Below are positions 6,403 to 64,000 of a DNA stretch of 64,000 bases, one piece after another. The stretch covers positions 15-64,014 of the forward strand of contig JAFTAM010000016.1 in assembly GCA_017458675.1 (NCBI GenBank). Reading direction: 5' to 3'. Every line of letters starts with the position of its first letter. Positions within the stretch are counted from its first letter, which is position 1. The stretch comes from a bacterium. Its GTDB lineage: Bacteria > Vulcanimicrobiota > Xenobia > Xenobiales > Xenobiaceae. Under the pieces are notes generated by a model, which searched no databases, was not told the origin of the DNA, and saw only the letters and a list, made by a program, of their open reading frames with translations. Position numbers and translations under genes: made by a program.

Positions 6403-6527
6403 AGTATTCCCCCTTTCTTATAAAAATAGTTTTACAGCTATTAAATACAATTTAAAGCAATAATTCCTTAAAATTTTAAGAAAAGCATTTAAAATGCTCA
6501 CTATAGTTTATTTTAACATAAAATGGC

Positions 6528-6590
6528 GCGCTTATGCGAAAAACAGCAGAATGCGGAGGCAAGATTCAACCCTGCGCTCAGAATGACATT
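6528..6590. repeat. Short fragment (3' ~60 bp) of the intergenic repeat family upstream of the A2M gene
   Basis: gcgaaaaacagcagaatgcgg...cctgcgctcagaatgacatt matches 3' end of element at 19245-19303. Confidence 0.35.
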
Positions 6591-8441: not shown

Positions 8442-10385
8442 TTAAGGGGTTCTTCGCCTTCCTCTCCTCCCCCTTGCACTATCTGCAATTTTTGCAGTTT
8501 TCCGTTCCTTCCCCTGAGCGAAGGAGCGCTTAGCTCTGCGTTCGCTCAAAAAACCTGAATTTTTACGGCGTCTTTCAGAAGCGCCGTTTTTCGCCTTAAC
8601 GCGTCCCTTATGCTCTCTGCCGCCCGGAGTATTGCTTCGCTCCCGGCTTTCCTCGTTTTTTTTAGCTTTATTGCCTCCGACGGAACCTTTTCCGTCCTCC
8701 AACGACATAACTTTGGCTTTAGCGGGAGAAATCAACCGCGCCTTTATCGGTTTTCCGCCGCCGCGGCTGTTCTTCAGTCCCTCCAAAACCGCGGCGGCCG
8801 CGTCTGTGGGGACCTCTGCGAAGGAGGTATGACTGCGGATTTCAATTTCGCCTATATCCGCCTTGGCCAGACCGGCAGCCTCGCTGCAGAGCTTCAGAAC
8901 CGAACCGACCGTGCAGCCGTCGTGCTTTCCGACGCTCAGCTGAATAAAGCTCATGCCCAGGCTTTCCGAAGCGGCAATTTTATCGGCCAGCCTGCGCAGC
9001 AGTTTATTGCTTTCTGCTTTAGATTCCCTTCTGCGTTCCGGGACAGGCACGTCCCAGCCGGATTCAAACACCGCCCGGGCCTGAGGCAGCAGGCTCAAAG
9101 CTGCGGCCAGCGCCTCATTGGGGCCCAGATAGGCCAGCAGTTCCGAAGCCAAAAGCACATATTTATCGTTTTCGTCGTAGGAAATATGCTCGCTCACATA
9201 TTTATGAAACTGTTCCCTGAGCCTGCGGCGAACGTCTTCGGCTTGGGGCAGAGTGCAGAACTGCGGACGCAGGCCGGCCCGGCTGAGCAGACGCTGCAGA
9301 TGAAGCGTCTCTCTTCCGGAGGCAAAGGTTATAGCCTTGCCGGTCCGGCCGGCCCGACCGGTGCGCCCGACCCTATGGATATAGGTCTCCGTATTCTGAG
9401 GAACGCCCATGTTGAATACATGGGTGACGCCCTGCACGTCCAATCCCCGGGCCGCCACATCGGTTGCAATTAAATATTTAAAATTGCCGGACCGGAAACA
9501 GTTTAAGGTTCTGGTACGCTCCGCCTGAGCCATATCTCCGTGCAGAGACAGTACATTTACGCCCATCCCGATAAGCTCCTGTGCCGTTTCATCGGTTTCA
9601 GCTTTCGTGTGACAAAAAATAATCGCCGACTGAGGTTCTTCGACGCAGAGCAGATTGGCCAGCGCCTTGAGCCGATAGGGCTTGGCGACCTCATAAGCTT
9701 CATGCCTGATATCCTTGGCCGCCGCCAGACCGATACTGACAGAGATGCGCCTGCTGTTATGCAGGGTTTTCGAGGCCAGCTCCTCCATTTCCGGCGGCAG
9801 CGTCGCCGAAAACAGCAGACTCTGACGTCCCTCCGGCAGGGCGGCTAAAATTCTGTCGAGTTCCTCGGCAAAGCCCATATCCAGAATTTCATCGGCCTCA
9901 TCCAGTACTAAAACCCGGCACTCGGACAGGTCCAGGCTGCCGCGCTCCAGATGATCGAGCAGACGTCCGGGAGTGCCCACAATTATCGCTGGTTCCGCCT
10001 TCAGGGCCCGCAGCTGCTCGGCATAGCCGCCGCCTCCGTAAAGCAGAGCGGTCCTTGCCTCCAGGGAGACAAAGACCTTGGCCACCTGCATGGCCAGCTC
10101 TCGGGTAGGCAGTACTATCAGAACCGACCCCGGTCTTTCATTGCGCTCATCGTTGAGCAGCGGCAGGGCAAAAGCCAGCGTTTTTCCCGTACCCGTACAG
10201 GACTGCACCAGCAAATCGCGTCCGCTCACAATATCTTCCCAGCAGTCTTGCTGCACCTGGGTGGGCATTCTGTAGTCCAGAGCGCCCAGACGTTCCTGCA
10301 GCCTGCCGCGCAGAGGCCACTCTGTAAAAGGAATCAAATCCATAAAATACTCCGCTGAACACAAAAACGGCGTCCGAGTCAGCAT
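8442..10385 (-). CDS. DEAD-box ATP-dependent RNA helicase (DeaD/CsdA-like) with C-terminal DbpA-type RNA-binding domain and basic RG-rich tail
   Basis: Motifs PTQVQ (Q), CTGTGKT (I), VLDEAD (II), SAT (III), HRVGRTGRAGRTG (VI); alternative start at M15 (10343) also has GGAG RBS. Confidence 0.9.
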   Translation of the reverse strand: MLTRTPFLCSAEYFMDLIPFTEWPLRGRLQERLGALDYRMPTQVQQDCWEDIVSGRDLLVQSCTGTGKTLAFALPLLNDERNERPGSVLIVLPTRELAMQVAKVFVSLEARTALLYGGGGYAEQLRALKAEPAIIVGTPGRLLDHLERGSLDLSECRVLVLDEADEILDMGFAEELDRILAALPEGRQSLLFSATLPPEMEELASKTLHNSRRISVSIGLAAAKDIRHEAYEVAKPYRLKALANLLCVEEPQSAIIFCHTKAETDETAQELIGMGVNVLSLHGDMAQAERTRTLNCFRSGNFKYLIATDVAARGLDVQGVTHVFNMGVPQNTETYIHRVGRTGRAGRTGKAITFASGRETLHLQRLLSRAGLRPQFCTLPQAEDVRRRLREQFHKYVSEHISYDENDKYVLLASELLAYLGPNEALAAALSLLPQARAVFESGWDVPVPERRRESKAESNKLLRRLADKIAASESLGMSFIQLSVGKHDGCTVGSVLKLCSEAAGLAKADIGEIEIRSHTSFAEVPTDAAAAVLEGLKNSRGGGKPIKARLISPAKAKVMSLEDGKGSVGGNKAKKNEESRERSNTPGGREHKGRVKAKNGASERRRKNSGFLSERRAKRSFAQGKERKTAKIADSARGRRGRRRTP

Positions 10386-13820: not shown

Positions 13821-15566
13821 TCAGGATTCTGAAAGCAGTCTTTTATACTCCTCAAAGTTTGGGACCTGATCCGGCGGAGTTCCCTTTTTTAGCGCCAAAA
13901 GCACCTGCGGGCGCAGAATAGCAAGACGCTTTTTTCTGTATTTATCGACTATATCCAGAGCTAATTTTTTGGCGTCGTCAAGTTCCGATTCAGGCGCCTC
14001 GACAGCAAAAAGCCGATAGACTCGCTCCTGCAGACTCATAGGATCTTCGGCTCCGAAAAGTTCTACGGTCATAATCGGCTTATGTCTGTCTTTCATAGCC
14101 CAAATCCTGCCGAATATTTCCGCCAGTTCCGCATCCTCTATTAAACTGATATCTAAAAGATTCTGCAAATCCGCCGCCCACTCCGGATGCAAGCTGCAAA
14201 GGCTTAAAAGTCTTTCCTCAGAGCTCAGATCTATCCACCTGCGGGCGGAGCTCAAGCTTATTCCCGCCGGCGAAGAGACGCCCTGACCGTTTGGAGCGGC
14301 CTTCTGCAGGCTGCGGCGCAGAGCGGAGAGGGACAGCTCGCCGACATAATATTCAAGCTCGCGCAGATAAGCCTCTCTGCGCACGGGATTGCGTATTTTT
14401 GCGATAAAGGGCATAACGGCTTTTACAAACCCTTCCTTGCCCTCAGGAGTAGAAACGTCAAATTTATTCAGCTGATGATTCATCTCAAATTTGACGATGC
14501 CGCAGCTTTCGGCCAATACTTTTTCTATCGCTTCACGTCCGCCCTTGCGGGCCAGGGAATCGGGATCCTCGCCTTCAGGGAAGGAAACCGTCATAACCTG
14601 CAGCCCGGCTTCCTCCAAAACGGCATTGCCCTTAATAACGGCATTTATTCCCGCATCATCGCCGTCGTAAGCCAATATAACCTGACCGGTATATTTTTTG
14701 CAGAGGTCCGCCTGCTCCGGCGTCAAGGCTGTCCCCAAAGTGGCCACGCAGCAGCCTATGCCGACCTGATGCATGGCAATCACATCCAGATAACCTTCTG
14801 TTACGATCGCTCGGTTTTCCCGGGATATCTGACCTCTGGCGACATTAAGGCCGTAAAGGTGATGTCTTTTGGAATACCATTTAGTTTCCGGAAAATTGAT
14901 ATATTTTGGGGAATTGTCCTCAACGATCCGCCGTCCCCCCATAGCAATGACCCTGCCTCTGAAATCGCAAATGGGAAAGATGAGACGACCTCCCAGAAGC
15001 TCTCTGGATCTCTGGTTGAGCACTCCGCACCGCTGCGCTTCCGCTTCCGAAAAGCCCGCCTCCTTCAGAGTTTTCCAAAAGGCCGCCCCGTTCGGAGGAG
15101 CGTAACCCAAGCGGAATTTTTCGGCTATGCTTCTGGAAATGCGCCTTTTTTTCAAATACTCCCGCCCTGCGCCGCCTTCTTCGCCCGCAAGCAGAATTTT
15201 GCCATAAAGCTCGCAAACGCGGTTCAAAAGCTCATAGCCGCGTTTTTTTTCGGTATCCTGCGAGGGAGCGTATTCAAGAGGAAGTTCTACCCCTACCTCA
15301 GCGGCCAGCTTCTGCACGGCTTCATAGAAGCCCATGCCTTCAGATTTCATTAAAAAAGAAAAGATGTTCCCGGACTCCTTGCAGCCGAAGCAGTGCCAGA
15401 AGCCCCGATCCGGATCCACATGGAAAGACGGCGTCCTTTCATTATGAAAGGGGCAGCTGGCAACATAACGGCTGCCTACGCGCCGTAACTGCAGATAGCG
15501 GCTCATTATTGCGATCATGTCCGCTCGCTCGGCAATTTCATTGATGGTGCTTTCAGGAATTCTCAT
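13821..15566 (-). CDS. dnaG: DNA primase
   Basis: CHC2 zinc finger CPFHNERTPSFHVDPDRGFWHCFGCKESGN; TOPRIM region (EGYLDVIAMHQ...YDGDDAG); upstream of rpoD. Confidence 0.9.
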   Translation of the reverse strand: MRIPESTINEIAERADMIAIMSRYLQLRRVGSRYVASCPFHNERTPSFHVDPDRGFWHCFGCKESGNIFSFLMKSEGMGFYEAVQKLAAEVGVELPLEYAPSQDTEKKRGYELLNRVCELYGKILLAGEEGGAGREYLKKRRISRSIAEKFRLGYAPPNGAAFWKTLKEAGFSEAEAQRCGVLNQRSRELLGGRLIFPICDFRGRVIAMGGRRIVEDNSPKYINFPETKWYSKRHHLYGLNVARGQISRENRAIVTEGYLDVIAMHQVGIGCCVATLGTALTPEQADLCKKYTGQVILAYDGDDAGINAVIKGNAVLEEAGLQVMTVSFPEGEDPDSLARKGGREAIEKVLAESCGIVKFEMNHQLNKFDVSTPEGKEGFVKAVMPFIAKIRNPVRREAYLRELEYYVGELSLSALRRSLQKAAPNGQGVSSPAGISLSSARRWIDLSSEERLLSLCSLHPEWAADLQNLLDISLIEDAELAEIFGRIWAMKDRHKPIMTVELFGAEDPMSLQERVYRLFAVEAPESELDDAKKLALDIVDKYRKKRLAILRPQVLLALKKGTPPDQVPNFEEYKRLLSES

Positions 15567-17762: not shown

Positions 17763-19010
17763 ATGTCTTTTGCTGCAAGCAGTGATCTGCATAAAAAAAA
17801 CAGCATCACCCGCTGGGATTTATTTGCCTGTGTCGCCGGACGTCCGGAGGGCATAGCTTTAACCAGGCTGGCTCACGTACTCCATGTGGAAAGAGAACGG
17901 TCCCTGATTGTTCCCCTGGGCGAGCTGGAGGACGAAGAGCTTATCGTCTGCGACAGCAGAGATCACTATATACTAAGCAGCAAAGAGGCAGCAAAGAAAC
18001 TGCGCTATACGATAGCTTACGCGCTGGCTTACGACTACGACTACAACGCCTACTTCAGCGAAGACATGGTGGCCTTCCTGAAAAAAGCCTACCGCAGCGA
18101 TCATTTCAGCACCGGCGATGTTTCCGAAAAGCTTATGAAGCCGGAGCTTATCACCAGGCTGGTTCATAACGACCTGCTTTTAATTTATAAATACGAACCT
18201 TTTACTGGACGTATAGTTGAAAATCCGTTTTTAGACGGCTTATGCGACTATCTGAAAATTAAGCGCGCCAAAGCCTTTTTCTTCCGCAAAAAGATCTCCA
18301 TGGGGAGCGTTTTGGAGGGGCGCAGGGAACAGCTCGACAGCAGCGACAGTCAGAACCTCTCCGCCGCCCGTAAATTTTTCTCCGGCCGCAATTTTAAAAA
18401 TGTCAACTGGGGGTTAACAGATAACGGAAAGTATATCAAGGAGAGCGTCGAGCGCGAGGATTCGGAGTTATTTGACCCCGAATCGAGCGCTTGCTTCCAG
18501 AAGGCCTGGAACGCAATGCAGGCCAACGTCAGCCGCTCGTCCAAGCTGAGCGTAGACGCTATAAAGCTTTACCATAAGCTGACCATGGCCAACACCGATA
18601 TCCCCAGCACTTATCGCGACCATGACGTAATGATCGGCAACAACCCCAATTTTAAAGCAGCCGTACCTTCGGAAATTCCCTATAAGCTGTCGAACCTGGT
18701 AAATTATCTGGCCGCTGCCAGCCCCTCGGACTTTGAATCGGTTCTGGACGTCTGCGCCTACGCCTACAATGAGTTCATCCATATTCATCCCTTCTCCGAC
18801 GGCAACAGCCGCACCGCCAGAATAGTCCTGGCCCATATCCTCAATCTCTTCCATATGCCGTTTGAAAAGATCCCTCACAGCTTCGAGGTGAGGTTCTTAA
18901 TCGTTACCAAGGGTTTAAAAACCAGAGACGACAACGAACTGAAGTATGTTTTGGAAGAGATATATTTAAACTGCATGAACCGCCTGGAGTTGGAAAAGGT
19001 GATGGGCTGA
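17763..19010 (+). CDS. Fic/DOC family protein with slightly degenerate Fic motif (HPFSDGNSRTAR)
   Basis: Fic core HPFxDGNxR at residues ~340-350; 415 aa. Confidence 0.85.
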   Translation: MSFAASSDLHKKNSITRWDLFACVAGRPEGIALTRLAHVLHVERERSLIVPLGELEDEELIVCDSRDHYILSSKEAAKKLRYTIAYALAYDYDYNAYFSEDMVAFLKKAYRSDHFSTGDVSEKLMKPELITRLVHNDLLLIYKYEPFTGRIVENPFLDGLCDYLKIKRAKAFFFRKKISMGSVLEGRREQLDSSDSQNLSAARKFFSGRNFKNVNWGLTDNGKYIKESVEREDSELFDPESSACFQKAWNAMQANVSRSSKLSVDAIKLYHKLTMANTDIPSTYRDHDVMIGNNPNFKAAVPSEIPYKLSNLVNYLAAASPSDFESVLDVCAYAYNEFIHIHPFSDGNSRTARIVLAHILNLFHMPFEKIPHSFEVRFLIVTKGLKTRDDNELKYVLEEIYLNCMNRLELEKVMG

Positions 19011-19107: not shown

Positions 19108-19390
19108 CTGTCAGCGCAAATGCAATGTCGGTAAGTTAAGCAAAAACAAGCTTTTAGCATACATTCTTAATAAAGGTTTTCTTTGACGCGTACGCGGAGA
19201 TTCGAGCGTAAGCGAGCGCGGAGCGGTAGCGACAAAGAAAACCGGCATAGCGAAAACATGCAGAACATGATCTAAAGATTCTTCGCTGCGCTCAGAATGA
19301 CAGAGGAAACATTTACAAGCCTAATGCAGAAATGCTATTGTGCCATTTTTAGCAAGTTATTGCCTTAACTTTATGACATTGGCGCAAAGG
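19108..19390. repeat. Copy A of dispersed intergenic repeat (core ~19127-19303, 177 bp, termini tgtcgg...gaatgacag) plus ~85 bp extension shared with copy B
   Basis: ~85% identity by eye with 22607-22875; core matches revcomp of 28238-28415 and partial copies at 1-140 and 6528-6590. Confidence 0.6.
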
Positions 19391-22471: not shown

Positions 22472-22875
22472 CTGCCGGCAAATTAAGCAAAAACAGCTTT
22501 AAGCATACACGCTTTACACAGGTTCTGTTCTGCACAGGAGCGAGCGTCTTAGCTAAATGCAGCCGCGGAACGAAGCGCAGAACAAAATCGACATAACAAA
22601 AAACTACTGTCGGTAAGTAAAGGAAAAACAAGCTTTTTGCGTACATGCTTAATAAAGGTTTTCTTTGACGCGTACGCGGAGATTCGAGCACAGCTTCGCG
22701 CGGAGCGGCAGCGACAAGAAAACCGGCATAGCGAAACAAGCAGAACATGATTGATAGATTCTTCGCAGCGCTCCCTGCGGCAGGAGAAGCGTTTACAAGC
22801 ATAATGCAGAGATGCTGCCGTGCCATATTCGGCGAAAGACAGTCTTAACTTAAGAATATTGTCATACGCCGCTGC
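22472..22875. repeat. Tandem pair of intergenic repeat elements (copy C 22472-22606, copy B 22607-22875)
   Basis: ctgccggcaaattaagcaaaaacagcttt and ctgtcggtaagtaaaggaaaaacaagcttttt both resemble the copy A 5' end; B is ~85% identical to A over ~260 bp. Confidence 0.6.
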
Positions 22876-33976: not shown

Positions 33977-34942
33977 GTGAATGACGCTATCCGCTTGCCT
34001 TTTTACGACAAACAGGAATATCTGAAAAACCTAAGGCCTATCAACGACCTTATGTTTCGCCTCTGCGCTAAATCCAAAAGCTGGTGCGAAGAGCTGCTGC
34101 GCACAGTTTTCGACGACGGTAAACTTACAGTAGAAGAAAACTGCGTTCAGTACGATTTAGCCAATCCCGGCCGCCGTTCCGTCATTCTGGACGCCAAATG
34201 CCGCTTAGGGAACGGCGATCTGGTTAATATCGAAGTTCAAACCGGCGAGCACGGCGATCATCAGAGAAGAGTACGTTTCCATTCTGCCCTGCTGACCGCC
34301 GAATCCAGCCTGCCTCAGATGGATTTTGCGGATATTCCCAATGTCTGCATAATTTATATATGCGAATTTGATATTTTCGGCTACAATAGTCCTATATATA
34401 AGGTTGACCGCGTGCTGCGCGGCTTCGGCGATGTATTGGATAACGGCTGTACGGAAATATACATAAACGCGCTGGCCAGGGACAATTCCAAAATTTCTCG
34501 GTTAATGGAGATTTTCGTAAACCGGGACGCCTATAACTTTGAAGATTTTGCCAATATTTCCACAATCAAACATTACTTTTTCAACTCTCGGAAAGGACAG
34601 GAAGAAATGGACGAAGCTCTGGAAAATTTATTTAAGGGCAGTTTAGCCCAGGTCAAAGCGGAAGCAATAGCTCAAGGTTTAGCTCAAGGCATGGCTCAAG
34701 GCATTGCTCAAGGCAAGGCTCAAGGAATTGCTGAAGGCAAGGCTCAAGGTATTGCTGAAGGTAAGGCTCAAGGTATTGCTCAAGGCAAAAAAGAAGGCAT
34801 AATATCCGTATTTATCAATCTGGTGAAGGACGGATTAATTTCTGTAGGCGAAGCCTGCAGACGCGCTGAGATATCAGAGGAAGCGTTCAAAGCTTTTATG
34901 GAAAAATACAGCCAGGAACAGGCTCAGATACAACATAACTGA
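33977..34942 (+). CDS. Rpn-family recombination-promoting nuclease / putative transposase (PD-(D/E)XK, YhgA-like) with C-terminal (AQGI/AEGK)n repeat
   Basis: N-terminal YhgA-like region (PINDLMFRLC...NIEVQTGEHGDHQRRVRFHSALL); 12-nt periodic gctcaaggxattgctcaaggc repeats encoding AQGLAQGMAQGIAQGKAQGIAEGKAQG; GTG start with GGAGGTG RBS. Confidence 0.8.
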   Translation: MNDAIRLPFYDKQEYLKNLRPINDLMFRLCAKSKSWCEELLRTVFDDGKLTVEENCVQYDLANPGRRSVILDAKCRLGNGDLVNIEVQTGEHGDHQRRVRFHSALLTAESSLPQMDFADIPNVCIIYICEFDIFGYNSPIYKVDRVLRGFGDVLDNGCTEIYINALARDNSKISRLMEIFVNRDAYNFEDFANISTIKHYFFNSRKGQEEMDEALENLFKGSLAQVKAEAIAQGLAQGMAQGIAQGKAQGIAEGKAQGIAEGKAQGIAQGKKEGIISVFINLVKDGLISVGEACRRAEISEEAFKAFMEKYSQEQAQIQHN

Positions 34943-49745: not shown

Positions 49746-51596
49746 TTGAAAACGCAGACCACTATGACAAACACCACCTGCAAAAATCAAAAGCTTGTAG
49801 CCTGGGTCGAGAAGATCGCCCAGCTTTGCACTCCGGACAAGATTCACTGGTGCGACGGCAGCCAGGAAGAGTATGACCGCCTCTGCCAGGAAATGGTCGA
49901 ATCCGGAACCTTTATCAGATTAAACCCCGAAAAGCGTCCCAACAGCTTTTTGGCCCGTTCCGACCCCGGAGATGTAGACCGAGTCGAAGACCGCACCTTC
50001 ATCTGCACGACCAAGCGTGAAGACGCCGGCCCCACCAACAACTGGATGGCCCCCGACAAGATGAAGGAAATCCTGCGCGGCCACTTCAAGGGCTCCATGA
50101 AGGGCCGTACCATGTACGTCATTCCCTTCAGCATGGGTCCCTTAGGCTCGCACATCGCCCAGATCGGCGTCGAAATCACCGACAGTCCTTACGTTGTCTG
50201 CAACATGCGCATTATGACCCGCATGGGCGCCAAGGTTCTGGACATCCTCGGCGAAGACGGCGAGTTCGTCCCCTGCCTGCACAGCGTCGGCGCTCCCCTT
50301 GAGCCCGGACAGAAAGACGTCGCCTGGCCCTGCGACGCCGACAATAAGTACATCGTTCACTTCCCCGAAGAGAACTCCATCGTATCCTACGGCTCCGGCT
50401 ACGGCGGCAACGCTCTGCTCGGCAAGAAGTGCCTGGCTCTGCGCATCGCCACCAACATGGCCCACCGCGAGGGCTGGCTGGCCGAGCACATGCTCATCCT
50501 GGGCGCCGAGTCTCCCGAAGGCGAAACCACCTATGTGGCCGCCGCTTTCCCCAGCGCCTGCGGAAAGACCAACTTCGCCATGCTCATTCCTCCCGAGAGC
50601 TTTAAAGCCAAAGGCTGGAAGATCTGGACCATCGGCGACGACATCGCCTGGATCAAGCCCGGCAAAGACGGACGCTTCTACGCCATCAACCCTGAAAACG
50701 GCTTCTTCGGCGTAGCTCCCGGAACCTCCGAAAAGTCCAACTACAACGCCATGGCCAGCTGCCGCGCCAACACCATCTTCACCAACGTGGCTCTGACCGA
50801 CGACGGCGACGTCTGGTGGGAAGGCATGACCAAAGAGGCTCCCGCTCACCTGATCGACTGGCAGGGCGCCGACTGGACGCCTGACTGCGGACGTCCCGCC
50901 GCTCACCCCAACTCCCGCTTCACCGCGCCCATTCATCAGTGCCCTTCGATCTCTCCCGAGACCGAAAACAGCAACGGCGTGCCCATCTCCGCCTTCATCT
51001 TCGGAGGCCGCATGAGCACCACCATGCCTCTGGTATATCAGGCCTTTAACTGGGCTCACGGCGTTTATATGGCAGCCACCGTCGGTTCCGAAAAGACCGC
51101 CGCGGCCAACGGCAAGATCGGCGAAGTCCGCCGCGACCCGTTCGCCATGCTGCCCTTCTGCGGCTACAACATGGGCGACTACTTCGATCACTGGTTCAAT
51201 ATGGGCCGCAAGAATACCATGCCCATTCCCATCTTCCGCGTCAACTGGTTCCTCAAGAAGGACGGCAAGTTCTTATGGCCCGGCTTCGGCGACAATATGC
51301 GCGTCCTGAAGTGGATCATCGACAGAGTTCACGGCCGCGCCAAGGCGATCGAGAGCCCCGTCGGCTTAATGCCCACCTATGAGGACATCGACTGGACCGG
51401 CCTCGACATCACCAGAGAAGACTTCGACGTCCTGATGACCGTCGACAAGAAAGCCTGGAAGAATGAGCTGCTGCTTCAGGAAGAGCTCTTCATGCGCCTC
51501 AGCGAGCGTCTGCCCCGCGAGATGATCATGGAGCGCCAGCAGTTCCTCAGCCGCCTCAACCGTTCCAACGACGTCTGGACTCCTCCTCACAACTAA
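49746..51596 (+). CDS. pckG: Phosphoenolpyruvate carboxykinase (GTP-dependent)
   Basis: Characteristic GTP-PEPCK sequence throughout (FPSACGKTN kinase-1a P-loop, [36 protein letters not shown]). Confidence 0.95.
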
Positions 51597-51621
51597 GGAC
51601 AGAGGTCTCTGAGTGAATAAA

Positions 51622-51656
51622 ACGCCTGTCTTAAAACAAAGGCAGGCGTTTTTTTT
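51622..51656 (+). terminator. pckG rho-independent terminator (island-proximal copy)
   Basis: acgcctgtctt/aaggcaggcgt stem followed by T8. Confidence 0.7.
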
Positions 51657-51746
51657 GCAGAAGGCGGATTCTCCGCCGCCGTTCAGAAAGGCGGCAAAAT
51701 TTCACCGGCCGCCCGAAGCTGTACTCATACGGCAGACACACGGCGG

Positions 51747-52121
51747 TTATTCAGCTTCAGCAATATCATACGGGAATTCCGGTTCTGTTCTGAAGTCCGC
51801 TCCGAATTCAGAAAAAGCTCTGACATACTTTATTATCTCTTTCGCCTTCCCGCTTATGACAAAATCCGAACTTTGCAGCAGGGATTTTGCCTCAAGATAA
51901 TTGCACTGCCTGAGCTTAGCCAGGCACTTGATCACATTGAGCTGCGGGCGGTCCGTTTTTGGAATGGTTACCGTATAAACGGTTTTATCAGCTTTAATCG
52001 GCGAAAAATATGTTGTCGCCCAACCCCATCCACACTTAGGACAAAGCATCCCACAGGAGCCAGACTCATGATAATATTCCATCAATTCACCGCATTTTTC
52101 ACAACAAGTAGTTTCAGTCAC
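51747..52121 (-). CDS. Small zinc-ribbon protein with C-terminal domain resembling ribosomal protein L7/L12 C-terminal fold
   Basis: CxxC...CxxC (CEKCG...CPKCG); C-terminal NVIKCLAKLRQCNYLEAKSLLQSSDFVISGKAKEIIKYVRAFSEFGADF patterns like L7/L12 CTD (NVIKvvRe.tGLgLKEAKdLVe.aP.vvKegvsKeEAeeiKkkLEeaGAkV). Confidence 0.5.
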   Translation of the reverse strand: MTETTCCEKCGELMEYYHESGSCGMLCPKCGWGWATTYFSPIKADKTVYTVTIPKTDRPQLNVIKCLAKLRQCNYLEAKSLLQSSDFVISGKAKEIIKYVRAFSEFGADFRTEPEFPYDIAEAE

Positions 52122-52633
52122 TGCTTTCCTCCTGGATAAAATTTTTTAAAACATCCTCTATTACTATAATCTGGCTTCTTAGGTGCATCTTGCCTACTTC
52201 CGGCTACGAAATACCTACCATTTGGATAAACCCACACTTTTTTTGTAGGTGCTTCAACGATAACGTTTAGTTTGTTAGCAAGATTTTGAGCAAAACCTTC
52301 AGATTCTGCACCAGTGTCACAAGAGAACAAACGAATTGATTTGTTTTTTAAATCTGAGTTTTTCTTAAATATCTTAGAGGCCATTCGATGATCAATTTCA
52401 ATAGAAATGCCATTATTCTGAATCTCAATAGTAGTAGAAGTTCCATGAGCAATAACATCATAAAATCCGTTTCTGTCAATATCTTTGCGTTTACGGATAA
52501 ATTTACTGAAATTATCATTAAAAGACATATAATCTACACTACCAGGAACAGCCAAACTACCATATGTGTTTGAATAAATTCCACTTTTTCCAGCTCCCAT
52601 TTTTACATCCGCCTCTTTCTGCAAGAAATCCAA
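52118..52633 (-). CDS. Hypothetical 171-aa protein with His...Cys dyad arrangement (VIAHGT ... RLFSCDTGA) suggestive of a caspase-like (clan CD) peptidase/toxin domain
   Basis: Conserved-looking HG then xCxxG spacing typical of the caspase/gingipain/CPD fold; overlaps neighbours by 4 and 31 nt (operon). Confidence 0.45.
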   Translation of the reverse strand: MDFLQKEADVKMGAGKSGIYSNTYGSLAVPGSVDYMSFNDNFSKFIRKRKDIDRNGFYDVIAHGTSTTIEIQNNGISIEIDHRMASKIFKKNSDLKNKSIRLFSCDTGAESEGFAQNLANKLNVIVEAPTKKVWVYPNGRYFVAGSRQDAPKKPDYSNRGCFKKFYPGGKQ

Positions 52634-53277
52634 TCAGGATAATGCACAAATTTAGTTTTGTTAATAACATCTGCAAAAATGGAATCAGGCATTGCACCAT
52701 ATACAAGTACAACTTCTGGCAGTAATTCTTCTAACATTGCCTTAAGACCATGTTTAAAAAAATACTTATCTTCTCTGCTACGAATTCCTCCATAAGTGCC
52801 TATAGACACAATACTATGCTTCGGAATTCCAAGGAATGCGAATTTTTCTGGAAGTATTTTTGTAGTATAACTACGTTCATCACCCCAGCGAATATTCGGT
52901 ATTACATAAACGCCACGTTTTTGATAATAATAGCCCACTGCACGATTTCTATAAGTATTTGACATCTGTGCTTGCAGAGGCATGTCACGATACAAAGAAT
53001 TATCTAATGTAACAATACCTGCAAAAGTTTTTATCAATTCATAGTACTTCTCAGGATTTTTTAAAATATCACTAAACTCAATATCATATTCATAAAACGT
53101 GACAAATTCAGAATGATCGCCACTTTGAGAAATTTTAGAAAATGGAATCACACGTTTAGGGATAATAATTTCCGATGGTTTCTCAATACAAGGCATTTCA
53201 AGAATACCATCAAACTTTGCGCCTTCAACAAATTCAGGATTAAAGCCATCATCAATTATAATTTTATGTTTAGGCAT
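52603..53277 (-). CDS. Hypothetical 224-aa protein (island cargo, first gene of three-gene operon)
   Basis: AT-rich ORF; no domain confidently recognised. Confidence 0.5.
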   Translation of the reverse strand: MPKHKIIIDDGFNPEFVEGAKFDGILEMPCIEKPSEIIIPKRVIPFSKISQSGDHSEFVTFYEYDIEFSDILKNPEKYYELIKTFAGIVTLDNSLYRDMPLQAQMSNTYRNRAVGYYYQKRGVYVIPNIRWGDERSYTTKILPEKFAFLGIPKHSIVSIGTYGGIRSREDKYFFKHGLKAMLEELLPEVVLVYGAMPDSIFADVINKTKFVHYPDWISCRKRRM

Positions 53278-53499
53278 AATAGCTCCATTCTACTTAAAAA
53301 CGCAACATAAAACCGTATCAATCAATAAAGTACACAGATTATTAATTGACAAAATAATATAAATGTGCTATTATGCAATATAGTTATATGTGTTCAATAG
53401 CACTTAACATTAAAACGCATGTTTTTACTGCGGCAACAGTTAATTCGTGCGTTTTTCTATTTTACAGGTAAAACATTGCAATTTAAGTATAGATAATAA

Positions 53500-54597
53500 T
53501 TAATCTCTAAATAAAGAAAGAAGATCGTAGTAAAAATACAAACGATTTCTTTTTTTACCATCTGTAAATAATAACCCCCTTTCAACCATAATATTCAAAT
53601 ATCTATTAATTGTCGCTAAAGGAATGCCTGTGAATTCATGTAAAAGTCTAGCATCAAATATCGGCATCTGATATATCCCATCAATGATTTTAACTATACT
53701 GCTAGATGATTTAATAAGTCCACATGCTATTTCCATATGCTTTGAATATAACTCATTAACATTAGAAATTATTTGAACATATTTTTTACATTGCTTTGCG
53801 ATAATATCTAAAAAAAATTTAATCCAATCATTCCATTTTTCAGGCAAACGCGTATCATTCAACATTTTGTAATATTTAAGTTGATCTCTTTCAAGCGCCT
53901 CACTAATAAAGAAATAAGGAAGTTCTAACTGTGATTGAAAATAAAGATATAAAGGAATCAAAATCCTGCCAACACGTCCATTTCCATCACTAAAAGGATG
54001 AATAGTTTCAAATTGCGCATGAACAATAGCAACTCTAATCAATGGATGAATTCTATCTGTAGGTGAATTTAAATATTGAATAAAATCTTTCATTAGCTGT
54101 GATACTCGTTCTGGCTCTGGTGGAATATAAACAAGTGTTCCATCATTTTTTCCAACATAATTTTGATGATCTCTATATTCGCCTACAGAATTTTCATTTT
54201 TTCTTACTTTTCCACTCATTAATTGTTTATGTATAATCTTAAAAAAATCATCAGAAAAATCCCCTCTTTTAAGCATATGAAACCCAATTTGCGTAGCTGT
54301 AAAATAATTATCTACTTCATTTAAATTTTTATTATCCTCATCACGTACAATTTTATTAATTAATACACCATCTAAAGTAGCTTGAGTTCCTTCCATCATA
54401 GAAGATTTCATAGCTTCTTTTTGTTGTAAAGTTGGCATAAACCAATTTGGATTAACTTTACTGTCTTTAATTTTTTCCTTATAAACTTCAAACATCGATA
54501 CTGCCTGAATTAATTCATCAAGAAATACACTATAATCCAGAATTCCATAGGCTTCCGGTAATGGTTTTGGCGCATAAGGTTTTTTCATATTACTCAA
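53500..54597 (-). CDS. Fic family protein, class II-like (canonical HPFSDGNGRVGR motif plus N-terminal inhibitory SxxxEG motif SSMMEG)
   Basis: HPFxDGNGRxxR at ~res 200; [ST]xxxE[GN] at ~res 65; AT-rich codon usage unlike the host genes. Confidence 0.85.
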   Translation of the reverse strand: MSNMKKPYAPKPLPEAYGILDYSVFLDELIQAVSMFEVYKEKIKDSKVNPNWFMPTLQQKEAMKSSMMEGTQATLDGVLINKIVRDEDNKNLNEVDNYFTATQIGFHMLKRGDFSDDFFKIIHKQLMSGKVRKNENSVGEYRDHQNYVGKNDGTLVYIPPEPERVSQLMKDFIQYLNSPTDRIHPLIRVAIVHAQFETIHPFSDGNGRVGRILIPLYLYFQSQLELPYFFISEALERDQLKYYKMLNDTRLPEKWNDWIKFFLDIIAKQCKKYVQIISNVNELYSKHMEIACGLIKSSSSIVKIIDGIYQMPIFDARLLHEFTGIPLATINRYLNIMVERGLLFTDGKKRNRLYFYYDLLSLFRD

Positions 54598-54720
54598 TAT
54601 TTTATCTCCTAAATCATAGAATACTCTAATATAGAATCATTGTCAATAGTTTTTGAGCGGGATTTTCTTTTTTTTTATTTATAAAGTCAATATCAATACA
54701 TTATTGTCATAAAATATTCT

Positions 54721-55233
54721 GTCGGTTCCGAAAAGACCGCCGCGGCCAACGGCAAGATCGGCGAAGTCCGCCGCGATCCGTTCGTCATGCTGCCTTTCTG
54801 CGGCTACAACATGGGCGACTACTTCGACCACTGGTTCAATATGGGCCGCAAGAATACCATGCCCGTTCCCATCTTCCGCGTCAACTGGTTCCTCAAGAAG
54901 GACGGCAAGTTCTTATGGCCCGGCTTCGGCGACAATATGCGCGTCCTGAAGTGGATCATCTACAGAGTTCACGGTCGCGCCAAAGCTGTTGAGAGCCCCG
55001 TCGGCTTAATGCCCACCTATGAAGACATTGACTGGACCGGCCTCGACATCACCAGAGAAGACTTCGACATACGGATGACCGTCGACAAGAAGGCCTGGAA
55101 GAATGAGCTGCTTCAGGAAGAGCTCTTCATGCGCCACAGCGAGCGTCTCCCCTGCGAGATGATCATGGAACGCCAGCAGTTCCTCAGCCGCCTCAATCGT
55201 TCCAACGACCTCTGGACTCCTCCTCACAACTAA
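54721..55233 (+). pseudogene. Displaced, decaying duplicate of the pckG 3' end (encodes only the last 148 codons)
   Basis: ~97% nt identity to 51081-51596, with a 3-bp deletion and several nonsynonymous changes (IDRVHG to IYRVHG, VLMTV to [15 protein letters not shown] to [10 protein letters not shown]). Confidence 0.8.
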
Positions 55234-55258
55234 GGACAGAGGTCTCTGAGTAAATAGA

Positions 55259-55293
55259 ACGCCTGTCTTCAAATCGAGGCAGGCGTTTTTTTT
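55259..55293 (+). terminator. Duplicated pckG terminator (distal copy)
   Basis: acgcctgtctt/gaggcaggcgt stem followed by T8. Confidence 0.6.
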
Positions 55294-55429: not shown

Positions 55430-56038
55430 ATGACCTCTGCAGACTTAAGTACAAACAGTCCGCCGCCCGTCACCCTCTGGCGGCTCTTTCGGGAAATGCT
55501 GCTGATCAGCTCCTGCACCTTCGGCGGCGGCTTTGTCATTGTGGCCTTTATCCAGGAAAAATTCGTGGATAAACTCAAATGGCTGGAGACCGAGGAGATG
55601 CTCGACATAATATCGGCCGCCCAGTCCGCGCCCGGACCGGTGGCCGCCAACACCTCGGTCATGCTGGGCTATAAGCTGGCCGGCATTCCCGGCGCGCTGC
55701 TGTCTCTGCTGGCGACCTCGCTGCCGCCGCTGCTCATCATGATCCTGGCCGCCGAATTTTTCGACAGACTCAGCGACAACCGCTTCTGCCAGATCTTTTT
55801 CAAATACTCCCGCCTGGCCATTGCCGCCGTTACGATCAACGTAACTTGGAACCTGGTCCTGACCGTAAAAAGCAAGCTGGGCGCCTCCGCGCTCTTTGCC
55901 GGGGCCGTAATCGCTCTGATGATGGTATTCTTAAAAATACCTACGGCATATTATATCGTCTTCGGAGGCCTTTTCGGATACTGCTTCTATAAAAATCCGC
56001 CGTCCAAGGACCAAAAAGCCGAAGGAGTTCAGCCATGA
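55430..56038 (+). CDS. Chromate transporter (CHR family) short-chain subunit 1
   Basis: FGGGFVIVAFIQEKFV...SAAQSAPGPVAANTS CHR signature; 202 aa; 4-nt overlap with partner. Confidence 0.8.
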   Translation: MTSADLSTNSPPPVTLWRLFREMLLISSCTFGGGFVIVAFIQEKFVDKLKWLETEEMLDIISAAQSAPGPVAANTSVMLGYKLAGIPGALLSLLATSLPPLLIMILAAEFFDRLSDNRFCQIFFKYSRLAIAAVTINVTWNLVLTVKSKLGASALFAGAVIALMMVFLKIPTAYYIVFGGLFGYCFYKNPPSKDQKAEGVQP

Positions 56039-56643
56039 TCGCTCTGAGCACCCTGCTGAATCTGTATTACACCTTCTTCTGCATCGGCATCGTCTGCTTC
56101 GGAGGCGGATACGCCGCCGTCAAGCTGACCCAGGAGCAGGTCGTCTCCGTCAACGGCTGGCTGACCTTCGACCAGTTTTCCCAGATTCTGGCCATCTCGG
56201 AAATGACTCCCGGACCTCTGGCTCTCAATGCGGCCAGCTTCGTGGGGACAAAATTAGCCGGCTGGCCGGGCGCGGTTTTCGCCACTCTGGGCCTGCTGAC
56301 CGCCCCCGCCCTGATAACCGGCGGCCTGGCCTGGCTCTACGGCCGCTATAAGGAGTGTCAGAGCGTCGAGGCAGTTCTCAATGGCATAAAACCGGTCGTC
56401 ATCGGCATGCTGGCCTCCGTGGCCGTCTCCTTTACGGCCAGGGGCGTAAATATCTGTCAGGACTTCAGCGACATGGAGGCCCTAAAAGAAAGCCTGCCTG
56501 ATTTTTCATGGCCGTCGGTCTTTTTTATCGCTCTGCTCCTCTGCGGGCTCAGGTTCAAAAAGTTCAACTCCATAAGCGCCATTCTCGGCATTGGACTTTT
56601 CGGCATTCTCCTGGAGCTCATTATCCCGCAGTTTCATTTATAA
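56035..56643 (+). CDS. Chromate transporter (CHR family) short-chain subunit 2
   Basis: FGGGYAAVKLTQEQVV...EMTPGPLALNAASFVG; paired with upstream half as in split ChrA systems. Confidence 0.8.
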   Translation: MIALSTLLNLYYTFFCIGIVCFGGGYAAVKLTQEQVVSVNGWLTFDQFSQILAISEMTPGPLALNAASFVGTKLAGWPGAVFATLGLLTAPALITGGLAWLYGRYKECQSVEAVLNGIKPVVIGMLASVAVSFTARGVNICQDFSDMEALKESLPDFSWPSVFFIALLLCGLRFKKFNSISAILGIGLFGILLELIIPQFHL

Positions 56644-63026: not shown

Positions 63027-64000
63027 ATGGATTCAAACAAACAAGATAACCTAAATAACGAGCTTAACGCCGCTCGCTTAAAATCCAGACCTCAGCCCGG
63101 CCAATTATCAGCTGCCAGCAGAGAATCTGTTCCGGCTTCCCAGATTAGTTCGGAAGGCCGTCTGAGCTTAAATGCTCCGGTTCATAACGGACAAGCCGCG
63201 GCAGCGCCGCTTGTGATGCGCCAGCGCAGCGGAGGGCTCGGAAGCTTACAGCAAAAAGTCCAGCAAGGACTCAATTCCGGCGCAGTTCATAATACAAGAG
63301 TATACGCTTCCGCAAATACAGCCCCTTCGTCGTCAGCCGGACCGCAGAATCTGCAGCCGGGCGCCGCTGCGATGCGAACCGGTTCTGTTCAGAGACCGGC
63401 CGGGACGTCTGCCGATTCTGTAAACAGCGGCGCAGTGCATTCTGCCCAGCCTCAGCGTCCTGTCTCCGCCGTCCCCGTACAGGGCGCGCGCACAGCCTCT
63501 ATGGCCGCCCCCGCGCCGCAAAGAACCGCCGCTCAGCCTGCCGGTTCTTCAGGCAATTCTGCGATACGCGCCGCTTCGCCCGCTCAGCGGCCCGCCGCGG
63601 CCGCACCCGTACAGGGCGCGCGCACAGCCTCTATGGCCGCTCCCGCGCCGCAAAGAACCGCCGCTCAGCCAGCCGGGACTTTAGGCAATTCTGCGATACG
63701 CGCCGCCTCGCCGGCTCAGCGGCCCGCCGCGGCCGCACCCGTACAGGGCGCGCGCACAGCCTCTATGGCCGCTCCCGCGCCGCAAAGAACCGCCGCTCAG
63801 CCCGCCGGGACTTTAGGCAATTCTGCGATACGCGCCGCTTCGCCGGCTCAGCGGCCCGCCGCGGCCGCACCCGTACAGGGCTCGCGCACAGCCTCTATGA
63901 CCGCTCCCGCGCTGCAAAGAACCGCCGCTCAGCCAGCCGGGACTTTAGGCAATTCTGCGATACGCGCCGCCTCGCCGGCTCAGCGGCCCGCCGCGGCCGC
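63027..64000 (+). CDS. Partial (3' beyond window) ORF encoding a low-complexity Ala/Pro/Gln-rich protein with near-perfect 44-aa tandem repeats
   Basis: ATG preceded by GGAAAGG RBS; open frame to window end (absent from the supplied track, apparently because it has no stop in the window); repeat PVQGARTASMAAPAPQRTAAQPAGTLGNSAIRAASPAQRPAAAA. Confidence 0.6.
   Translation, partial: MDSNKQDNLNNELNAARLKSRPQPGQLSAASRESVPASQISSEGRLSLNAPVHNGQAAAAPLVMRQRSGGLGSLQQKVQQGLNSGAVHNTRVYASANTAPSSSAGPQNLQPGAAAMRTGSVQRPAGTSADSVNSGAVHSAQPQRPVSAVPVQGARTASMAAPAPQRTAAQPAGSSGNSAIRAASPAQRPAAAAPVQGARTASMAAPAPQRTAAQPAGTLGNSAIRAASPAQRPAAAAPVQGARTASMAAPAPQRTAAQPAGTLGNSAIRAASPAQRPAAAAPVQGSRTASMTAPALQRTAAQPAGTLGNSAIRAASPAQRPAAA
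63474..64000 (+). repeat. 132-bp tandem repeat array (at least 4 units, continuing past window end) inside the partial ORF
   Basis: cccgtacagggcgcgcgcacagcc recurs at 63474, 63606, 63738, 63870; units ~97-100% identical. Confidence 0.8.

Follow-up and report, generated by a model that had tools for sequence, protein, structure and literature searches.

The pckG tail is duplicated around an AT-rich insert

How does a block of AT-rich DNA come to lie directly behind a housekeeping gene, with the end of that gene on both of its sides and no mobility gene inside it? The locus that raises this question belongs to an uncultured gut bacterium related to UBP9 / 'Candidatus Bruticola', and we analysed it within a 64-kb stretch of DNA, referred to here as the window. 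The host gene, the repeats and the edges of the insert are as follows.

49746–51596, plus strand: pckG, intact, encoding a GTP-dependent PEP carboxykinase (Pfam PEPCK_N, E = 1e-106; PEPCK_GTP, E = 3e-166)
51079–51656, plus strand: proximal repeat copy, comprising PckG codons 446–616, the stop codon and the terminator (from alignment; conserved relative to outgroups)
51620–51656, plus strand: intrinsic terminator of pckG, with a 12-bp stem, a 7-nt loop and T8 (from reading of the sequence and alignment)
51657–51746, no strand assigned: GC-rich (62%) spacer of 90 bp at the pckG-proximal end of the insert (from composition and BLAST)
54598–54718, minus strand: AT-rich 'leader' and Fic promoter region adjoining the distal repeat, homologous to its diverged counterpart at locus L183
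54719–55293, plus strand: distal repeat copy, a displaced pckG tail and pseudogene fragment with its own terminator (55256–55293)
55430–56643, plus strand: chrA pair, chromate transporter genes (from Pfam and synteny with the empty sites L001 and L193–195)

PckG is 616 aa long from its TTG start (610 aa as annotated) and matches NCBI MBQ7501238.1 at 100%. An earlier note on this DNA had described a direct repeat of the pckG tail and terminator around an AT-rich segment, and our alignment within the window confirmed it, with sharp edges at 51081–51656 and 54721–55293. Comparison with L183, a locus from a lineage 13% diverged, showed that the homology originally started 2 nt earlier (51079/54719), giving a 578-bp repeat. 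The final T of the terminator T-run is exactly where the repeat stops, and the terminator of the distal copy was also called as such by prediction. Over 576 aligned columns we counted 29 substitutions and one in-frame 3-bp deletion between the two copies, which puts their identity at about 95% rather than the ~97% first given.

The search for an empty site in relatives, which the same note had proposed, was successful. In two more distant relatives (L001 and L193–195) a single pckG tail is followed directly by chrA; these genomes are of other species, with ~75% nucleotide identity in the pckG tail. On synteny, the chrA pair is the ancestral 3′ neighbour of pckG. The empty sites with their single tail support the view that the segment between the repeats is of foreign origin and came to rest at the 3′ end of the gene.

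The same 14.5-kb structure was found in two further assemblies (L081 and L082) at 99.93–99.97% identity to the window, with different assemblers used across the three. The independence of L081 and L082 is limited, since they may come from the same study, one of goat gut metagenomes. At L183, leader and tail meet at the identical junction nucleotide and the contig breaks exactly at the end of the repeat. In the distal copy of L081, the first five variable sites carry the proximal allele and thus differ from the window, a possible conversion tract between the repeat copies that could instead be an assembly chimera. An assembly or binning artefact, that is, a chimeric contig with AT-rich foreign DNA between collapsed or mis-joined pckG copies, is hardly credible: the window is a metagenome-assembled contig, the GC content of the island is very different from that of the host and L081 and the window differ within the distal copy, but the other assemblies reproduce the arrangement and the 29 differing sites allowed the copies to be assembled separately rather than collapsed, the junction of AT-rich DNA with the tail recurs on one contig of the diverged L183 lineage, and the distal copy carries pseudogene-type damage.

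The proximal tail is kept and the distal tail decays

We polarized the differences between the copies with L183 as the outgroup. The distal copy has 21 derived substitutions and the codon deletion, compared with 6 derived substitutions in the proximal copy, where only four derived changes are coding (three synonymous and one V to I). Among the derived changes of the distal copy are A467V, D526Y, L563R, L585H, R591C and the loss of one codon. The deletion, D526Y, L585H and R591C are the changes that the earlier note had pointed out, and its statement that this copy is accumulating damage holds; GC-to-AT changes outnumber AT-to-GC changes in it by 13 to 3. As read from the sequence, the proximal copy is the functional tail of a working pckG and is kept under selection, while the distal copy decays.

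On the distal lineage, 11 of 19 changes were synonymous, compared with the 6.7 ± 1.8 expected under neutral decay (P = 0.016), and the distal copy retains V494, the state of the more distant relatives. Because of this synonymous excess and the retained ancestral residue, the distal tail possibly derives from a diverged allele, and part of its divergence may predate the displacement, coming from the working tail of another allele. The excess is a single test at that significance, and mutational hot spots could also give it. The predominance of distal-derived differences fits a true duplication of one resident target; the synonymous excess and V494 suggest a diverged allele.

The insert carries an intact four-gene module

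The segment between the repeat copies is 3.06 kb long and mostly 26–36% GC. Within the window, GC content lies at 0.26–0.36 from about 52100 to 54700 and at 0.45–0.62 elsewhere. The collapse from ~58% to ~30% GC described earlier therefore stands for the interior of the island, but the genome background is nearer 52–55% (pckG itself has 59.5%) and the drop is not uniform, with 62% at 51657–51746 and 44% in the first island gene (51747–52121). By BLAST, the GC-rich spacer matched only itself and L081/L082, and it could not be aligned to the intergenic regions of the empty sites. The earlier note had held that its reading would fail if related strains showed the same arrangement with uniform GC and no empty-site allele; three assemblies and a diverged lineage do carry the island, but GC is non-uniform and empty sites exist. 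At the other edge, a promoter-like site (54646–54618) lies in the leader ahead of the first of four genes, all of which are transcribed towards pckG.

53500–54597, minus strand: Fic_N and Fic AMPylase of the SoFic type, 365 aa (Pfam; PADLOC SoFic)
52603–53277, minus strand: DUF4417 protein of 224 aa, conserved as the core of the module (Pfam PF14386)
52118–52633, minus strand: toxin-type domain with a clan-CD cysteine-protease fold, 171 aa, or 160 aa from the ATG at 52600
51747–52121, minus strand: zinc-ribbon protein (CxxC...CxxC), 124 aa, 44% GC (open reading frame)

The Fic protein matches PADLOC model PDLC03963 over residues 5–364 of 365 (E = 4e-99). We looked in its translation for the SoFic motifs HxFx(D/E)GNGRxxR and (S/T)xxxE(G/N), and read an active-site motif, HPFSDGNGRVGR, and an inhibitory motif, SSMMEG. 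Against the NCBIfam protein adenylyltransferase SoFic model it scored 132 bits, below the 550-bit equivalog cut-off. The dN/dS value relative to L183 is about 0.06 and the gene is therefore under purifying selection. Other SoFic proteins give phage resistance by abortive infection (PMC12249575); judged purely by homology, the island Fic would be an abortive-infection toxin of this kind, with known anti-phage activity.

The DUF4417 protein scored 158.3 bits against PF14386 (gathering threshold 28.9), covering profile positions 2–182 of 183. Its structure is predicted to be a TIM barrel resembling the tRNA/DNA-guanine transglycosylases and not a recombinase fold. The neighbouring toxin may be a target of the transglycosylase-like DUF4417, by analogy with CBASS, where Cap10 modifies a partner enzyme. 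The start of the toxin ORF overlaps the end of the DUF4417 gene; toxin ORFs beside DUF4417 overlap its stop codon, and often start with MGGRG or MGAGK. The toxin domain has the clan-CD fold with the conserved His...Cys dyad of the Peptidase C80 / DUF4347 type, and its score against DUF4347 was 18.9 bits, below the 24.6-bit cut-off. The 124-aa zinc-ribbon protein had no match in any family library searched. Its gene is the fourth of the module, in the place taken at other loci by small variable ORFs that come after the toxin ORF, and by this positional analogy it is a putative immunity gene; on homology only, the toxin domain and the zinc-ribbon protein would form a toxin/immunity-like pair.

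A Fic gene heads the four-gene module here and in several other genomes. Since this complete layout matches other genomes and the Fic dN/dS is so low, the cargo is an intact four-gene module and not a remnant, contrary to one of the options originally raised. Our literature search found no description of a four-gene module of Fic, DUF4417 and a toxin/immunity-like pair. As first reported, none of the four island ORFs is an integrase, recombinase or transposase, according to Pfam, PADLOC, PHROGs, NCBIfam and two structure models, and we found no integrase, recombinase or transposase among 33 further non-overlapping ORFs of 150 aa or more that the 64-kb window contains.

Homologous modules lie between duplicated gene ends at other loci

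Homologous DUF4417 modules in unrelated phyla have duplicated 3′ ends of different host genes on both sides, usually with the terminator. Bracketing repeats were present at 4 of 11 loci, compared with 2–5% of control anchors; counting only repeats of 100 nt or longer gave 3 of 11 loci and 0 of 980 controls. The duplicated unit is a SpoIVB-like peptidase tail with its terminator at L167, an MmeI-like tail at L173 and a terminator at L083.

Two of these loci, L167 and L173, are serial arrays of displaced tails. The L167 repeat likewise ends exactly at the terminator T-run. Its two newer tails have a common terminator. The oldest displaced tail, copy 3, has a different terminator of its own and is a functional allele of orthologue-like type; a 40-nt leader is common to both displaced tails. 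From this pattern of alleles, terminators and leaders, the segments inserted at L167 bring a tail with its terminator on one side and a leader on the opposite side. At L173, the boundary of one fragment differs. The idea, raised earlier for the window, that a replacement tail came with the incoming DNA has clear evidence at L167 and modest backing in the window itself (P = 0.016, above). No integrase was found at roughly ten other loci with a homologous module, nor in the six cargo segments of three repeat-flanked arrays, and the window and L167 junctions have no conserved site in common.

Possible origins of the insert

Our best reading, to which we give slightly less than an even chance, is a recombinase-less cassette of low-GC origin that bears the tail of a host gene and enters by host recombination. 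The incoming DNA would carry the pckG tail and terminator at one end of its cargo, and this tail would recombine with the resident one through host recombination functions, in a single crossover of the Campbell type. Such a crossover would keep the gene whole, place the cargo behind the terminator and push a second copy of the tail to the far side. After entry, the repeats appear to go on exchanging sequence by gene conversion, for which there is partial evidence. The repeats could also release the cassette as a circle with one tail, which could enter a naive relative in the same way; this would account for the junction common to diverged lineages.

A tail-bearing cassette is supported by the arrangement in three assemblies, the empty sites, the junction found again in the L183 lineage, the derived state of the distal copy, its synonymous excess and V494, the possible conversion tract in L081, the absence of a recombinase from the island and from the window ORFs of 150 aa or more, the bracketed DUF4417 modules elsewhere and the make-up of the L167 segments. 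Against it, we saw no circular form, same-species empty-site allele or donor. It does not account for the first formation of a tail-bearing circle or for a leader common to different cargo. A site-specific recombinase acting in trans would equally produce the shared boundaries and conserved leaders of L167 and L173, and a target duplication made de novo and followed by conversion fits the window almost as well.

We regard the latter, an 'insertion with long target duplication', as unlikely on balance although a serious contender. Non-homologous foreign DNA would have been joined just after the pckG terminator with 578 bp of the target copied on both sides, for instance when replication changes template at a stalled fork or when two illegitimate joins link sister chromosomes; the tails would have been identical at birth, later conversion and decay making the differences. 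Furuta, Abe and Kobayashi (2010; PMC2853133) recognized such events by an insert below 20 kb, no mobility-related gene and a direct repeat above 30 bp that occurs once in the empty site. Here, the insert is 3.06 kb with four genes, none of them mobility-related, and the repeat is 578 bp, its pckG tail being single and followed by chrA in L001 and L193–195; the cargo consists of Fic, DUF4417, a protease-fold toxin domain and a small protein in place of restriction/modification genes. The lack of a recombinase, the excess of distal-derived differences and the end of the repeat at the terminator T-run in both the window and L167 all agree with a duplication of this type. It leaves unexplained, however, the shared leaders and the reused boundary in the displaced tails of L167 and L173, the orthologue-like allele and different terminator of L167 copy 3, the synonymous excess on the distal lineage of the window and the 62% GC spacer beside an otherwise ~30% GC insert. 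The mechanism of the class has itself never been demonstrated.

Site-specific integration, the process invoked in the earlier note, was not borne out and is less probable again. It would call for a lost or trans-acting tyrosine or serine recombinase and a CIME-like element whose attP held a long pckG 3′ end. The reconstituted gene end with the old end displaced is what elements integrating at 3′ ends produce, tandem arrays in which att-like junctions recur and members have decayed are familiar (PMC5704250), L167 and L173 reuse a boundary and share leaders as P-arms would, and the junction is identical in a diverged lineage. But although pckG is reconstituted and empty sites exist, we found neither a recombinase, in the island, among the window ORFs of 150 aa or more or in the cargo segments of the arrays described above, nor a short att block: identity blocks are taken to be tens of bp, rarely about 200, and 578 bp at about 95% identity far exceeds usual att cores and would need host-lineage specificity. 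The different boundary of one L173 fragment, the lack of a conserved site common to the window and L167, and a cargo that is a complete, selected module and not a decayed element also count against it. A CIME, by definition, has kept the attL and attR of a parent ICE or IME but no longer has its genes for integration and transfer (PMC5704250); the architecture is compatible with this, and no parent element, integrase or att core was identified.

Implications

A broader proposal, which we put forward as a speculative one, is that modules consisting of a Fic or HTH/ImmA-like gene, DUF4417, a variable toxin and a variable small ORF form an undescribed family of recombinase-less mobile defence cassettes that travel as units with a host 3′ end and terminator, use host recombination to enter, displace resident tails and build arrays of fossil tails. 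If true, this would be a general, integrase-independent route of island accretion at the ends of housekeeping genes, and would explain in concrete terms how insertion with long target duplication, long a puzzle, comes about. Methods and theory for genomic islands mostly presuppose an integrase or transposase, and the module here has no mobility gene. The duplicated host gene tail, which homologous modules in unrelated phyla show as well, links a new type of cargo to a class of insertion that was described for restriction-modification genes in 2000–2010 and whose mechanism was never resolved. The arrays of displaced tails, some clearly foreign alleles, are natural material for testing the mechanism, and the tails are datable 'fossils' of earlier alleles of essential genes. 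The undescribed four-gene module around DUF4417 is itself a candidate defence or toxin system.

Comparison with known systems

Campbell-type single crossover, or 'insertion-duplication' with suicide plasmids, is textbook knowledge, known mainly as a laboratory tool. It has the same topology of homology, insert and homology with a duplicated gene 3′ end, needs only host homologous recombination and leaves repeats that permit pop-out and gene conversion; the difference is that no natural circular vehicle with a pckG tail was seen here. In the polymorphic toxin loci of Rhs and CDI, a resident gene receives a new 3′ end from DNA that enters, its former C-terminal tip comes to lie downstream, and serial orphan arrays build up. 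The serial displaced tails of L167 and L173 are alike in this respect, but in Rhs and CDI the toxin domains are the displaced tips themselves and recombination uses the conserved gene body as its arm, whereas the genes affected here are ordinary ones, with housekeeping or enzyme functions, and the toxins lie between the tails. Accretion of integrative elements at a 3′ end is exemplified by fda (ICESt1/ICESt3).

CIMEs and tandem accretion (PMC5704250) likewise keep the target gene intact and give tandem arrays of units. Their repeats, however, are short att sites of a known parent ICE or IME integrase, whereas ours are hundreds of bp long, with neither integrase nor parent element seen at any locus and a complete small module as cargo. 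The island Fic resembles SoFic defence proteins (PADLOC model; PMC12249575; bioRxiv 10.64898/2026.07.09.737422) in its full-length match, motifs and domain layout, and differs in falling under the equivalog cut-off and in being the first gene of a four-gene module.

Of the classes described so far, insertion with long target duplication, as known for restriction-modification genes, comes closest (Nobusato et al. 2000; PMC2853133). There too, a short stretch of defence genes that includes no mobility gene, often of deviant GC, lies between long direct repeats that are single in empty-site genomes and often overlie a gene 3′ end; the published repeats are 45–423 bp (the longest 370–423 bp), several overlapping a gene 3′ end. 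The locus described here differs in its Fic/DUF4417/toxin cargo, in its longer repeat, in tails that can be different alleles brought with the insert (at L167 and, weakly, in the window) and in arrays that share leaders.

The duplicated pckG 3′ end and the island between its copies

The direct repeat reported in the earlier note was borne out, with sharp edges. Between the copies there are 29 substitutions and an in-frame deletion of 3 bp, which puts identity at about 95% rather than the ~97% given there. Each contains PckG codons 446–616, the stop codon and an intrinsic terminator, and the 3′ limit is exactly the last T of the terminator T-run.

51081–51656, proximal copy of the pckG 3′ end
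51657–51746, GC-rich spacer of 90 bp (62% GC) between the proximal terminator and the AT-rich insert
51747–52121, minus strand, 124-aa zinc-ribbon protein with no family match
53500–54597, minus strand, Fic protein (Fic_N and Fic) with an intact HPFSDGNGRVGR motif and an SSMMEG inhibitory motif; full-length PADLOC match to SoFic, E = 4e-99
54721–55293, distal copy of the pckG 3′ end

All four island genes lie on the minus strand. GC content is 0.26–0.36 at about 52.1–54.7 kb against a background of 0.45–0.62 in the 64-kb window profile, with no second segment of such low GC in the window. The collapse in GC noted previously is uneven, with the GC-rich spacer and the 124-aa gene at one end. The latter has 44% GC and a GC3 of 0.43; the remaining three genes have 29–34% GC and a GC3 of about 0.2. 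The spacer had no match in the sequences compared and could not be aligned to the intergenic regions of empty sites.

Two other metagenome assemblies of this locus (L081 and L082) carry the 14.5 kb around the island at 99.93–99.97% identity with identical gene order; they may share a goat gut study with the window as their source, which limits their independence. The arrangement is real, and the chance that this shared structure is an assembly artefact is extremely small.

The host is uncultured and related to UBP9/‘Candidatus Bruticola’; database PckG proteins show a gap in identity to that of the window from 100% down to about 86%. The insertion proposed earlier is supported by the empty site in both nearest relatives examined, L001 (a goat rumen MAG) and L193–195 (a common lineage). 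Here, a single pckG end directly precedes two chrA genes and a GNAT gene, followed in L193–195 by LPG_synthase_C, in full synteny with the flanks of the window. No empty-site allele of the same species was found among the available contigs.

The loops of the two terminators (51632–51640 and 55268–55276) differ at 4 of 7 bases and both 12-bp stems are identical; the loop differs in L183, the contig of a diverged relative, and varies in all lineages. We rejected the intact stems as a sign of selection or functional divergence, since ~3.7% divergence predicts only about one stem change and the stems are thus uninformative. A weak terminator-like hairpin on the minus strand a little way inside the left boundary of the repeat (51097–51115 and 54737–54755) is within the chance number from shuffled sequence.

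Divergence of the two tail copies

Compared with PckG relatives of about 85% identity, the distal copy has the derived changes A467V, D526Y, L563R and L585H and one deleted leucine, all at conserved positions; R591C is probably derived too. The proximal copy shows only two conservative V to I changes against the same relatives. A much closer outgroup was L183, a 1166-bp contig from another sample that holds a pckG tail, the 5′ portion of a diverged Fic gene and the region upstream of Fic. Its junction lies at the very same nucleotide as that of the window, at 87% identity overall. The comparison also places the original start of homology 2 bases further out, at 51079/54719, one of these bases having since mutated in the distal copy of the window.

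Changes in the two tail copies with L183 as outgroup
Distal lineage: 21 substitutions (11 third-position, 8 first/second-position, 2 noncoding) plus a codon deletion
Proximal lineage: 6 changes (3 synonymous, one V to I, 2 noncoding)
Unpolarised: 3 alignment columns

This imbalance supports the earlier view of the distal copy as a displaced tail without function. Purely neutral decay in situ is compatible with the data only in part: in a simulation conditioned on the mutation spectrum, 6.7 ± 1.8 of the 19 coding changes on the distal lineage were expected to be synonymous and 11 were observed (P = 0.016). Residue 494 is valine in the distal copy and in more distant relatives, and isoleucine in the proximal copy and L183. 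The synonymous excess and the retained V494 hint at separate alleles as the possible sources of the two tails, with part of the distal divergence arising while that tail was still in a working gene.

The distal copy of L081 has the proximal allele at the first five variable sites, in the equivalent of 54777–54865, with the rest of the 14.5 kb nearly identical; this stretch is the product either of gene conversion between the repeats or of chimeric assembly. The distal tail of L183 is undamaged and its contig stops exactly at the repeat end, as would be expected if its two copies were nearly identical. From these comparisons, the two repeat copies appear to exchange sequence.

Island genes and the search for mobility functions

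Judged by its domains and motifs, the Fic protein is a SoFic-type, predicted defence protein; it scores below the NCBIfam equivalog cut-off for SoFic. SoFic is known as a defence protein (PMC12249575). Between the window and L183 (2–454), the Fic gene has a dS of 0.63, a dN of 0.039 and a dN/dS of 0.06. The gene is thus kept by selection and the island is no decaying remnant, contradicting one of the two options previously offered. At the neighbouring pckG tail dS is 0.18, about 3.5-fold lower than at Fic; either codon-bias constraint on pckG or an independent history of the island could explain the gap. A second, unrelated Fic-domain gene (415 aa, 17763–19010) has surroundings of host-like GC. 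The 160-aa domain encoded in the island also occurs as a stand-alone protein, in repeated form within giant proteins, and at the very C-terminal end of many larger proteins, a distribution typical of polymorphic-toxin domains.

None of the four island proteins matched an integrase, resolvase or transposase in any family library searched, and neither did the other 33 non-overlapping window ORFs of at least 150 aa; the absence of such genes noted earlier holds for this set. The sole mobility-flavoured match in the window was a borderline one to PDDEXK_2 (Rpn/YhgA-like ‘transposase’; 28 bits against a 27.4-bit cut-off) in a 321-aa ORF 17 kb away (33977–34942). DUF4417 was rejected as the missing recombinase, its model being a TIM barrel nearest tRNA/DNA-guanine transglycosylases. 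The window contains no tRNA gene or Rfam family, so an RNA gene as att target was also rejected. An RNA-mediated origin, suggested by the repeat ending at a transcript 3′ end, was set aside: no reverse transcriptase was detected in the island or window, and the boundary at another DUF4417 locus, L083, precedes the T-run.

No further AT-rich islets or tail duplications were found in the window. The only other repeat pair from that search was a noncoding, intergenic element of about 270 nt (19120–19390 and 22600–22870; about 85% identity; no Rfam match) flanking mutL and a deacetylase gene. A GC-rich tandem repeat with a 132-bp period (63319–63978) lies at the window end.

Homologous modules in other bacteria

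The closest homologues of the Fic (about 56% identity) and DUF4417 (57–71%) proteins are in unrelated bacteria with the same layout, including an Oscillospiraceae-like Clostridia genome (L167) and a Lentisphaeria MAG (L163–165). The order begins with Fic, or with HTH plus Peptidase_M78, upstream of DUF4417, and continues with a locus-variable small ORF and a small variable ORF; the third-slot ORF encodes a toxin domain where identifiable (EndoU_bacteria, PBECR1). No integrase was found within or adjoining the module at any of these loci. Direct repeats of a host gene 3′ end bracket the module at four of 11 independent loci.

Repeats bracketing DUF4417 modules
Window: pckG, 578 bp
L167: SpoIVB-like peptidase tail plus terminator, about 170–200 bp
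L173–175: MmeI-like gene tail, about 200 bp
L083: terminator hairpin, 50–60 nt, cut by the contig end

As a control, random anchor points in 98 unrelated loci were put through the identical test.

Flanking repeats at DUF4417 loci and control anchors
At least 40 nt, 80% identity, copies at most 8 kb apart: DUF4417 4/11; controls 26/490 (5.3%); Fisher P = 0.003
At least 40 nt, 80% identity, copies at most 6 kb apart: DUF4417 4/11; controls 35/980 (3.6%); Fisher P = 6e-4
At least 50 nt, 85% identity: DUF4417 4/11; controls 19/980 (1.9%); Fisher P = 7e-5
At least 100 nt, 85% identity: DUF4417 3/11; controls 0/980; Fisher P = 1e-6

Phages and plasmids were rejected as vehicles: stand-alone DUF4417 is rare in phage, plasmid and viral-contig collections, with no strong flanking repeats there.

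At two of the four repeat-bracketed loci, the tails form arrays.

Tail copies at L167 and L173
L167, SpoIVB-like peptidase tail, three copies: 6384–6581, 9575–9744, 14032–14155
L173, MmeI-like restriction gene 3′ tail, four copies with different small cargo between them: 8574–8793, 5418–5637, 4267–4486, 3483–3702

In L167, copies 1 and 2 enclose the Fic–DUF4417 module, and copies 2 and 3 enclose LysR, ADH, aminotransferase and transporter genes. These metabolic-type genes indicate a process that also takes in cargo other than DUF4417 modules. The two displaced copies have in common a left boundary, the ending ...EKIK* and a 40-nt leader (the stretch adjoining a displaced tail) that is not at the intact gene, where the current ending is ...EKISD*. 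The terminator of the current tail is that of copy 2, and copy 3 has a different one. Most orthologues of the peptidase end ...AEKIK, and the other amino-acid differences of copy 3 are natural orthologue states. Copy 3 is thus the displaced tail of a different functional allele rather than a decayed current tail. The inserted segments at L167 have a leader at one of their ends and a tail plus terminator at the opposite one.

At L173, the intact MmeI-like gene differs in its last ~45 nt and has its own hairpin. Fragments 1 and 3 have a roughly 50-nt leader in common, and one fragment has a different boundary. Leaders of unrelated loci show no significant similarity and so give no evidence of a common recognition site. 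A candidate left-edge recombination motif (GTCGGTTC in the window, GTCGGGTTC in L167, with TATTG[A/T]CAT upstream) was attributed to chance, local alignments between unrelated loci being not significant against shuffled controls.

Mode of insertion and comparison with known systems

We favour entry by host homologous recombination, with a confidence a little short of even. Four observations argue for it: the long homology (124–578 bp), the lack of a recombinase across the three arrays, with their six cargo segments, the differing boundary of one L173 fragment and the signs of sequence exchange between copies. A single crossover between the resident gene tail and an incoming molecule with a homologous tail would produce the observed topology. 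Later recombination between the repeats could convert one copy, delete the island or free a circle with one tail, and such a circle could re-enter a relative. Pop-out and re-entry would explain why a diverged lineage has the identical junction and why different alleles lie side by side.

De novo long target duplication in the sense of Furuta and Kobayashi, followed by conversion, is in our view rather doubtful as the origin of the island. Insertion with long target duplication was described for restriction-modification genes, as small defence inserts with no mobility gene and a mechanism left open (PMC2853133). Its repeats are 45–423 bp long and single-copy in empty-site genomes, and several overlap a gene 3′ end (PMC2853133). 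The island has the same structural features and a different cargo. Considered alongside L167, the island suggests that a true duplication of a single target need not be the source of the tails.

The site-specific integration first proposed fits the topology, since an attP including the gene end would yield the same arrangement, but the missing recombinase in all six cargo segments does not favour it. A CIME-like (cis-mobilizable) element, using a trans-acting or lost site-specific recombinase, is an unlikely source. CIMEs at gene 3′ ends and the island have their architecture in common; CIMEs, however, are defined by a parent integrase system (PMC5704250), and none is seen here.

We found no description of the four-gene module in the literature searched, where few papers mention DUF4417 and one treats it solely as a domain of unknown function in a phage ParB fusion; the island points to a candidate toxin or defence module not yet described. 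Insertion with long target duplication is the closest described phenomenon, and the island provides natural material for studying how such insertions arise.
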